Shown: positions 26,721-26,906 of the stretch, in pieces
Position numbering within the stretch: the stretch's first letter is position 1
How the letters are laid out: every line of letters starts with the position of its first letter
From: a virus
DNA length: 42,305 nucleotides
UHGV virus genome: UHGV-0118819
Reading direction: 5' to 3' (one strand)
Program-made: the position numbers and the translations under genes
Notes under the pieces: generated by a model
Database searches by the model: none
The model's input: only the letters and a program-made list of their open reading frames with translations
Told to the model about the DNA's origin: nothing

Positions 26721-26906
26721 TTGGCTATTGCCAGATCCAAAGGCCGGATTGGTGGGCGTAGACCGAAGTTTAGCGACGAGAAGTGGCAACAGATGGGAGC
26801 GCTCATAGCGGCAGGGAAATCACGGCGTTATGTTGCACGTATCTATAACGTTGGGCTATCAACCCTATATAAACGATTTCCTGTTACTGGCATTCAAACG
26901 AAATAA
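26721..26906 (+). pseudogene. remnant of serine DNA-invertase (Hin/Gin/Pin-like C-terminal HTH only)
   Basis: 61-aa ORF GRIGGRRPKFSDEKWQQMGALIAAGKSRRYVARIYNVGLSTLYKRF resembles invertase C-terminus; catalytic domain absent. Confidence 0.7.

Follow-up and report, generated by a model that had tools for sequence, protein, structure and literature searches.

What is the 61-codon open reading frame (ORF) that lies immediately behind the tail fibre genes of virus genome UHGV-0118819: the end of a lost DNA invertase, or a small gene in its own right? And if an invertase once acted here, how much of its switch is left? The whole 42,305-nucleotide stretch analysed here, referred to as the window, is a temperate myovirus genome. 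The original prediction for this locus proposed that only the C-terminal helix-turn-helix (HTH) of a Hin/Gin/Pin-type invertase remains, and that an ancestral invertible fibre switch has been lost. Our analyses very probably answer the first question in favour of a recent, non-functional pseudogene, in which the final 65 codons of a serine DNA invertase of the Gin/Pin family were left behind a now fixed fibre gene by a 541-bp deletion between short repeats. Coordinates of the features discussed are given in Table 1.

Table 1 Features of the locus and of related arrangements (window coordinates unless a record is named).
Feature	Position	Strand	Remarks
Tail fibre gene	25304..26350	+	348 aa, chimeric; Pfam Phage_fiber_2
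Residual left crossover site	25647..25672	+	CTCTCGAAAACC TT GGTATTAAAAAC; inside the fibre gene; aligned with the left/right sites of three intact invertible segments
Tail fibre assembly (chaperone) gene tfaX	26347..26715	+	122 aa, intact; Pfam Caudo_TAP, E 2.7e-18
Deletion joint	26707..26714	+	8-bp microhomology GAACTTTA, common to the tfaX 3' end and invertase codons 121-123
Invertase remnant (very probable pseudogene)	26709-26906	+	residues 123-187 (end of helix E and HTH_7) plus stop
61-codon ORF	26721-26906	+	TTG start
Native 3' flank of the invertase gene	26907..27042	+	co-inherited with the remnant; block 26707-27042 common to L013, L009, L010 and SKA5
tRNA-Thr gene, 3' part	27262-27320		ends in CCA
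HK75/mEpX2-like integrase and excisionase-like ORF	27336-28720	-	386 aa and 115 aa
Single-cassette segment-like arrangements	L013 6476-7660; L006 about 2990-4230; L007 about 3490-4030; L011 about 3084-3260		fibre tip, tfaX and 95-bp tail

Results

The ORF is the C-terminal end of a serine DNA invertase

The product of the ORF matched Pfam HTH_7 (PF02796, 'helix-turn-helix domain of resolvase') with an E value of 1.1e-12 and 48.3 bits, well above the 23.8-bit cut-off of the profile; the match spans ORF residues 12-53, corresponding to profile positions 1-42 of 45. The profile check that the original prediction had called for thus agrees with it. We then aligned the window, translated from 26700, with the intact 187-aa 'recombinase family protein' of E. 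coli 13C1065T. From translated residue 4 on, the remnant (peptide sequence MAIARSKGRIGGRRPK...) corresponds to residues 123-187 of the intact protein, with 64 of 65 positions identical. The DNA itself is homologous to intact invertase genes from 26707 on, ahead of the TTG at 26721, and the true remnant is therefore longer than the ORF (Table 1); the TTG is merely the first start codon that the ORF finder reached. Neither a search of the 65-aa remnant against NCBIfam nor a search of the remnant region against Rfam returned a match.

The intact allele consists of a Resolvase domain (residues 2-135) followed by HTH_7 (residues 138-179) in Pfam, and its residues 1-181 align with phage Mu Gin (PDB 3UJ3; E 1.2e-56). 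A small serine DNA invertase carries a PF00239 domain with the serine nucleophile (S9 in YVRVST), and this the remnant lacks; what it retains is the C-terminal HTH_7 homologous to Gin/Hin, together with DNA continuity with the intact genes that includes their 3' flank. A tblastn search of the whole window with the intact 187-aa invertase recovered residues 123-187 alone (26709-26903, E 8e-39), and found no catalytic domain elsewhere in the window; Pfam on the ORF gave HTH_7 only. These results confirm that nothing of the invertase but its C-terminal HTH region is left, and place the matches of the ORF with invertases rather than with an unrelated full-length small-protein family.

The fibre gene retains one crossover site and one tip

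Head, tail and baseplate genes occupy about 5.4-26.7 kb of the window on the plus strand, and this structural module is approximately 97% identical to those of vB_EcoM-611R5 and the EPEC E2348/69 prophage. To its right lies an attP containing the 3' part of a tRNA-Thr gene, beyond which the minus strand carries the integrase, the excisionase and early genes; in the HK446 and mEpX2 records that match this stretch, it is labelled attP, similar to thrW. Since phage genes flank attP on both sides, the window has the appearance of an entire phage genome in circularly permuted form, and not of an integrated prophage. Adjacent phage-borne tRNA-Asn(GTT) and tRNA-Thr(TGT) genes were detected at 2366-2521 by both ARAGORN and Rfam. 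Just 3' of the remnant, within the co-inherited block, a stable hairpin is predicted at about 26939-27003 (-35.9 kcal/mol, z = -3.4), and a 15-pair terminator-like inverted repeat at 27079-27114 lies near the end of the homology to E2348/69 (27119).

The remnant directly follows a fibre gene and a chaperone gene that Pfam recognises as Phage_fiber_2 and Caudo_TAP, in keeping with its predicted position. The fibre gene is split into a constant and a variable part at a crossover site. The constant part, at the N terminus, belongs to the 611R5-like backbone type, its homology to phage 611R5 stopping at 25663; the C-terminal receptor-binding tip, here termed Vx, is homologous to the P2-like H gene of 23AR0998 from 25656 on, and this tip type is also present in P2-like H genes. 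The module boundary is formed by the 8 bases ACCTTGGT (25656-25663), including the TT core of the site, within which homology passes from backbone to cassette. Both the 348-aa fibre gene and the 122-aa chaperone gene are intact, and a working fibre with a single specificity is probably still produced by the phage.

No recombination sites had been seen in the original prediction; this point needs correction, as one residual site-like 26-mer is present inside the fibre gene. It emerged through alignment and a half-site scan, and the canonical site AAACCTTGGTTTGGGAGAAG does not occur in the window at up to three mismatches. Of the two half-sites around the TT core, the outer one is canonical, agreeing with the local consensus at 9/10 positions, and the inner one, at 6/10, is degenerate. 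No other 26-mer of the window reaches a score of 15/20 against the half-site consensus, compared with a mean of 0.14 such 26-mers per shuffle. An invertible segment has two inverted 26-bp crossover sites. The search for gix/hix-like repeats flanking the fibre thus succeeded on one side only: there is no second site in the window, the right one having been deleted, and the residual site has no recombination partner. An alternative tip and chaperone on the opposite strand, the remaining part of such a segment, is likewise missing: tblastn of the minus-strand cassettes of the 13C1065T prophage, 611R5 and SKA5 against the minus strand of the window found none, and the ORF list contains none, as had been predicted.

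Relatives retain invertible segments

In the window's backbone type, the canonical order is a fibre gene and tfa on one strand, an opposed tfa' and fibre tip' on the other, and then the invertase. This order was found in the 13C1065T prophage (L002) and in vB_EcoM-611R5, and the same two-cassette and invertase order occurs in SKA5, which has an unrelated backbone. The segments of these relatives are bracketed by inverted 20-nt repeats of AAACCTTGGTTTGGGAGAAG, the centre of 26-bp gix/pix-type crossover sites. The 13C1065T prophage has both the backbone and the invertase allele of the window and keeps the full two-cassette invertible segment; window positions 26707-27390 are 98.2% identical to L002 6001-6683, including the thrW-type attachment region. 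Because phages of the same backbone carry this arrangement, we conclude that the switch has been lost in the window and the fibre fixed in one form. This much of the proposed history stands; the immediate precursor, though, was probably not a two-cassette, G-like segment but a single-cassette form, as described below.

In the single-cassette segment, comprising a fibre tip, tfaX and a 95-bp tail, the left site lies in the fibre gene and the right site just 5' of an intact invertase. One and the same Vx/tfaX cassette occurs joined to four invertase alleles that have diverged from each other, the homology breaking off at precisely the core of the right site (...GAAACG AA C...). If this form inverts, the fibre would be truncated after ...ALENLRFEQEE*, making it an ON/OFF rather than an A/B switch. 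The predicted inverted junction (...GAAAACCTTCGTTTCGAACAGGAGGAGTAG...) was found in none of 5426 complete E. coli genomes, only 3 of which contain the segment itself; apparent extensions of inverted-junction matches into the crossover site were rejected as palindrome artefacts.

A probable 541-bp deletion accounts for the junction base for base

The undeleted form of the window's junction is present in an IMG/VR viral contig, L013. Here tfaX ends in TAA; between it and an intact invertase gene, which is exactly the allele of the remnant, lies a 165-bp spacer that contains a hairpin as well as the right crossover site. L013 carries two copies of GAACTTTA 541 bp apart, one on the tfaX stop at 7531 and the other in invertase codons 121-123 at 8072. 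Removing the 541 bp between these repeats reproduces the joint of the window base for base, including the TAG that replaces the TAA stop of tfaX. The flanks are 97.9% identical to window 25595-26714 and 98.5% identical to 26707-27042 (L013 8072-8407). The comparison with relatives retaining an intact invertase, as the original prediction had suggested, thus yielded both a near-identical protein in 13C1065T and the undeleted form in L013.

The same picture is obtained from the sequences at the breakpoint. Intact invertase genes read ...AGCGAGC GAACTTTAGCTGGTTTGGC...; in the window, the tfa end ...CATCCCG GAACTTTAG leads directly into CTGGTTTGGC...; and tfaX genes that are not joined to a remnant end in ...CCGGAACTTTAA (P2-like prophages of 23AR0998 and Z1323HEC0011; IMG/VR L011-L013), with a hairpin (CTGGTCTTGCT...AGCAAGACCAG), a crossover-site-like sequence and a full invertase gene 3' of the stop. 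The native TAA is found in L006, L007, L011 and L013, and the TAG of the window is due to the deletion joint. An 8-bp overlap would be expected at a random joint with a chance of about 4^-8; it is the signature of a short-repeat (slippage or illegitimate) deletion.

Taken together, we infer the following course of events. A two-cassette ancestor of the family would have given rise to a single-cassette form with an intact invertase, like L013, and this form to the window's arrangement through the 541-bp deletion. The precursor would have contained the fibre gene with the left site, tip Vx, tfaX, the 165-bp spacer (hairpin and right site) and an intact invertase of 187 codons. A RecA-independent deletion, by replication slippage or illegitimate recombination between the two GAACTTTA copies, would have removed the hairpin, the right crossover site, the DNA 5' of the invertase start and codons 1 to about 120 with the catalytic serine. 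The invertase promoter was presumably lost with the DNA upstream of the start. In gin, hin and cin, a Fis-dependent recombinational enhancer sits in the 5' part of the gene; by analogy, such an enhancer would have been lost here as well, Fis sites themselves being too degenerate for reliable scoring. The outcome would be one crossover site with neither partner nor recombinase, and a fibre gene permanently fused to Vx, which would fix the host range. With a single-cassette precursor, the alternative fibre would have gone before the invertase was truncated. The module may have moved between backbones either before or after the 541-bp deletion, given that the backbone of L013 differs from that of the window.

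The junction could also have arisen in one step, if a foreign tip/tfaX cassette had replaced the two-cassette segment and the first 121 invertase codons without an L013-type intermediate. In terms of 13C1065T, 2247 bp would have gone out and 1043 bp come in, with the left joint at the site core ACCTTGGT, possibly invertase-mediated, and illegitimate recombination at GAACTTTA producing the right one. Such an exchange would fit the 8-bp overlaps at both module boundaries, the two-cassette state of the sibling L002 with its identical backbone and invertase allele, and the presence of the Vx/tfaX cassette in P2-like phages as well. It would, however, require two rare joints in one event, and L013 already provides the undeleted form with the identical invertase allele and the second GAACTTTA correctly placed. 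Since this undeleted form exists, the simple 541-bp deletion is more parsimonious, and we consider one-step replacement improbable.

The junction is rare and occurs on three backbones

Among 5426 complete E. coli genomes, the deletion junction was present in five, namely four assemblies of E2348/69 and EcPF16; the other matches covered the query partially and, among the matches listed, all lay in intact recombinase genes. The junction also occurs in three IMG/VR contigs. An exact scan of species-representative genomes gave 0 matches, and no cultured phage of the INPHARED set contains it. Carriers fall on a 611R5-like backbone (the window, E2348/69 and L008), on an SKA5-like backbone integrated at dusA (EcPF16 and L010), and on a third backbone whose baseplate is P2-like and whose H gene encodes 579 aa (L009). 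They have in common a block from about 25.6 kb to 27042, comprising the site, Vx, tfaX, the remnant and its 3' flank. The module may have spread over the three backbones by recombination in conserved flanks, or the deletion may have recurred at the same repeats; both histories predict an identical junction and are therefore equally compatible with it.

EcPF16 carries the deleted junction in one prophage (L005, record 4293370-4293929), and the spacer between tfaX and the invertase, which is missing from the deleted form, is present at a second locus (record about 4475999-4476098); the donor type may thus coexist with the product type in one cell.

RefSeq lists the remnants of E2348/69 (E2348C_RS27245) and EcPF16 (HR074_RS20790) as 'helix-turn-helix domain-containing protein, incomplete, missing N-terminus'. 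Gene decay at this locus is ordinary, and in E2348/69 already annotated by RefSeq as a pseudogene. According to RefSeq, the E2348/69 fibre gene (L001 6005-7051) is decayed as well. We dropped this candidate, as its ORF is intact over 348 codons and its alignment with the window fibre is free of gaps; the mosaic tip has probably misled the annotation into the flag of a C-terminally incomplete pseudogene. A survey of inversions across the whole E2348/69 genome reported three invertible loci, of which one was described as lying in a Mu prophage and two as lying in P2-like prophages (PMC4272514).

The remnant is recent and intact in frame

Intact alleles and the remnant are 0-2 nt apart over 198 nt, and therefore the deletion is recent. 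Its frame is open, with no frameshifts or internal stops, and the sole change private to the window is non-synonymous (Q to K). With 0-2 differences, dN/dS is precluded, and the remnant carries no selection signal either way; being undecayed, it would look the same whether too young to decay or maintained.

An open ORF with a whole HTH_7 domain might be expressed as a stand-alone protein, by reinitiation after tfaX. By binding gix/pix-like sites it might, for instance, inhibit co-resident Pin-family invertases in a dominant-negative manner or serve as a local regulator. Isolated Hin HTH peptides bind hix half-sites. The TTG lies 5 nt past the tfaX stop (TAG 26713-26715), and late transcripts should enter the remnant now that the terminator-like hairpin between tfaX and the invertase is deleted. 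Against this, the remnant is in a different frame from tfaX, and its sole start is a TTG that, as read from the sequence, has no Shine-Dalgarno; the junction is rare (5/5426 E. coli genomes), no signal of selection accompanies the near-identity to intact alleles, the private change is non-synonymous, and RefSeq calls the remnant a pseudogene. We therefore regard a stand-alone HTH protein as very unlikely. Slightly less likely still is the specific version in which termination-reinitiation after tfaX yields a low level of an orphan HTH that binds pix/gix-type sites as a phage-encoded dominant-negative factor. If true, such a protein could damp fibre-segment inversion in co-resident prophages, or shield the residual site of its own phage from their invertases. 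That the ORF represents an independent, full-length small HTH family and never belonged to an invertase has nothing for it but its small size and open frame, and is as good as eliminated by 98.5% DNA identity to intact invertase genes over their 3' third together with 136 bp of 3' flank, by homology beginning upstream of the ORF start, and by the existence of the undeleted precursor.

Discussion

Reading the locus as an invertase pseudogene has direct consequences for annotation: the ORF should be labelled as such rather than as a small HTH regulator, and the phage should be treated as fixed in its fibre specificity. The locus provides a base-resolved case of how a host-range switch may decay, in which a short-repeat deletion would remove a crossover site, the DNA upstream of the invertase and the catalytic domain together. 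It also illustrates that fibre-tip modules can be bounded by the invertase crossover site when moving between unrelated phage backbones, a point that was made in the early 1990s for the fibres of P1, p15B, Mu and P2. Beyond correct annotation, the significance of the remnant is little.

The closest known system is Gin and the G segment of Mu, along with Cin/C of P1, Pin/P of e14, Min of p15B and Hin of Salmonella; the intact allele of the remnant aligns with Gin end to end. As in Gin/G-type systems, relatives of the window have a fibre gene split at a 26-bp site, two opposed cassettes of tip and chaperone, and the invertase immediately 3'. The window, in contrast, keeps the fibre-internal site and the HTH but has no catalytic domain, right site or alternative cassette, and presumably no enhancer.

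Further arrangements allow closer comparison. The pseudogenes of E2348/69 and EcPF16 have the junction of the window and the 198-nt remnant with 1-2 nt differences, and E2348/69 also shares the backbone; the Q-to-K change sets the window apart from both. On its right side, the window carries an HK75-like thrW attP/integrase module rather than adjoining intS/argW. Single-cassette forms with an intact invertase (L013 and L011; 23AR0998 and Z1323HEC0011) have tip Vx, tfaX and the left site as in the window, and L013 also the same invertase allele and 3' flank; these forms keep the spacer with the right site and the full invertase, whereas the window is short of 541 bp. The invertase of 611R5 (L003 12249-12563), on the same backbone, is truncated in the opposite way, and represents an independent decay event: about 93 N-terminal residues of a different allele are kept, after which divergent sequence runs to a stop so that no HTH remains, with the segment, both crossover sites and both cassettes retained.
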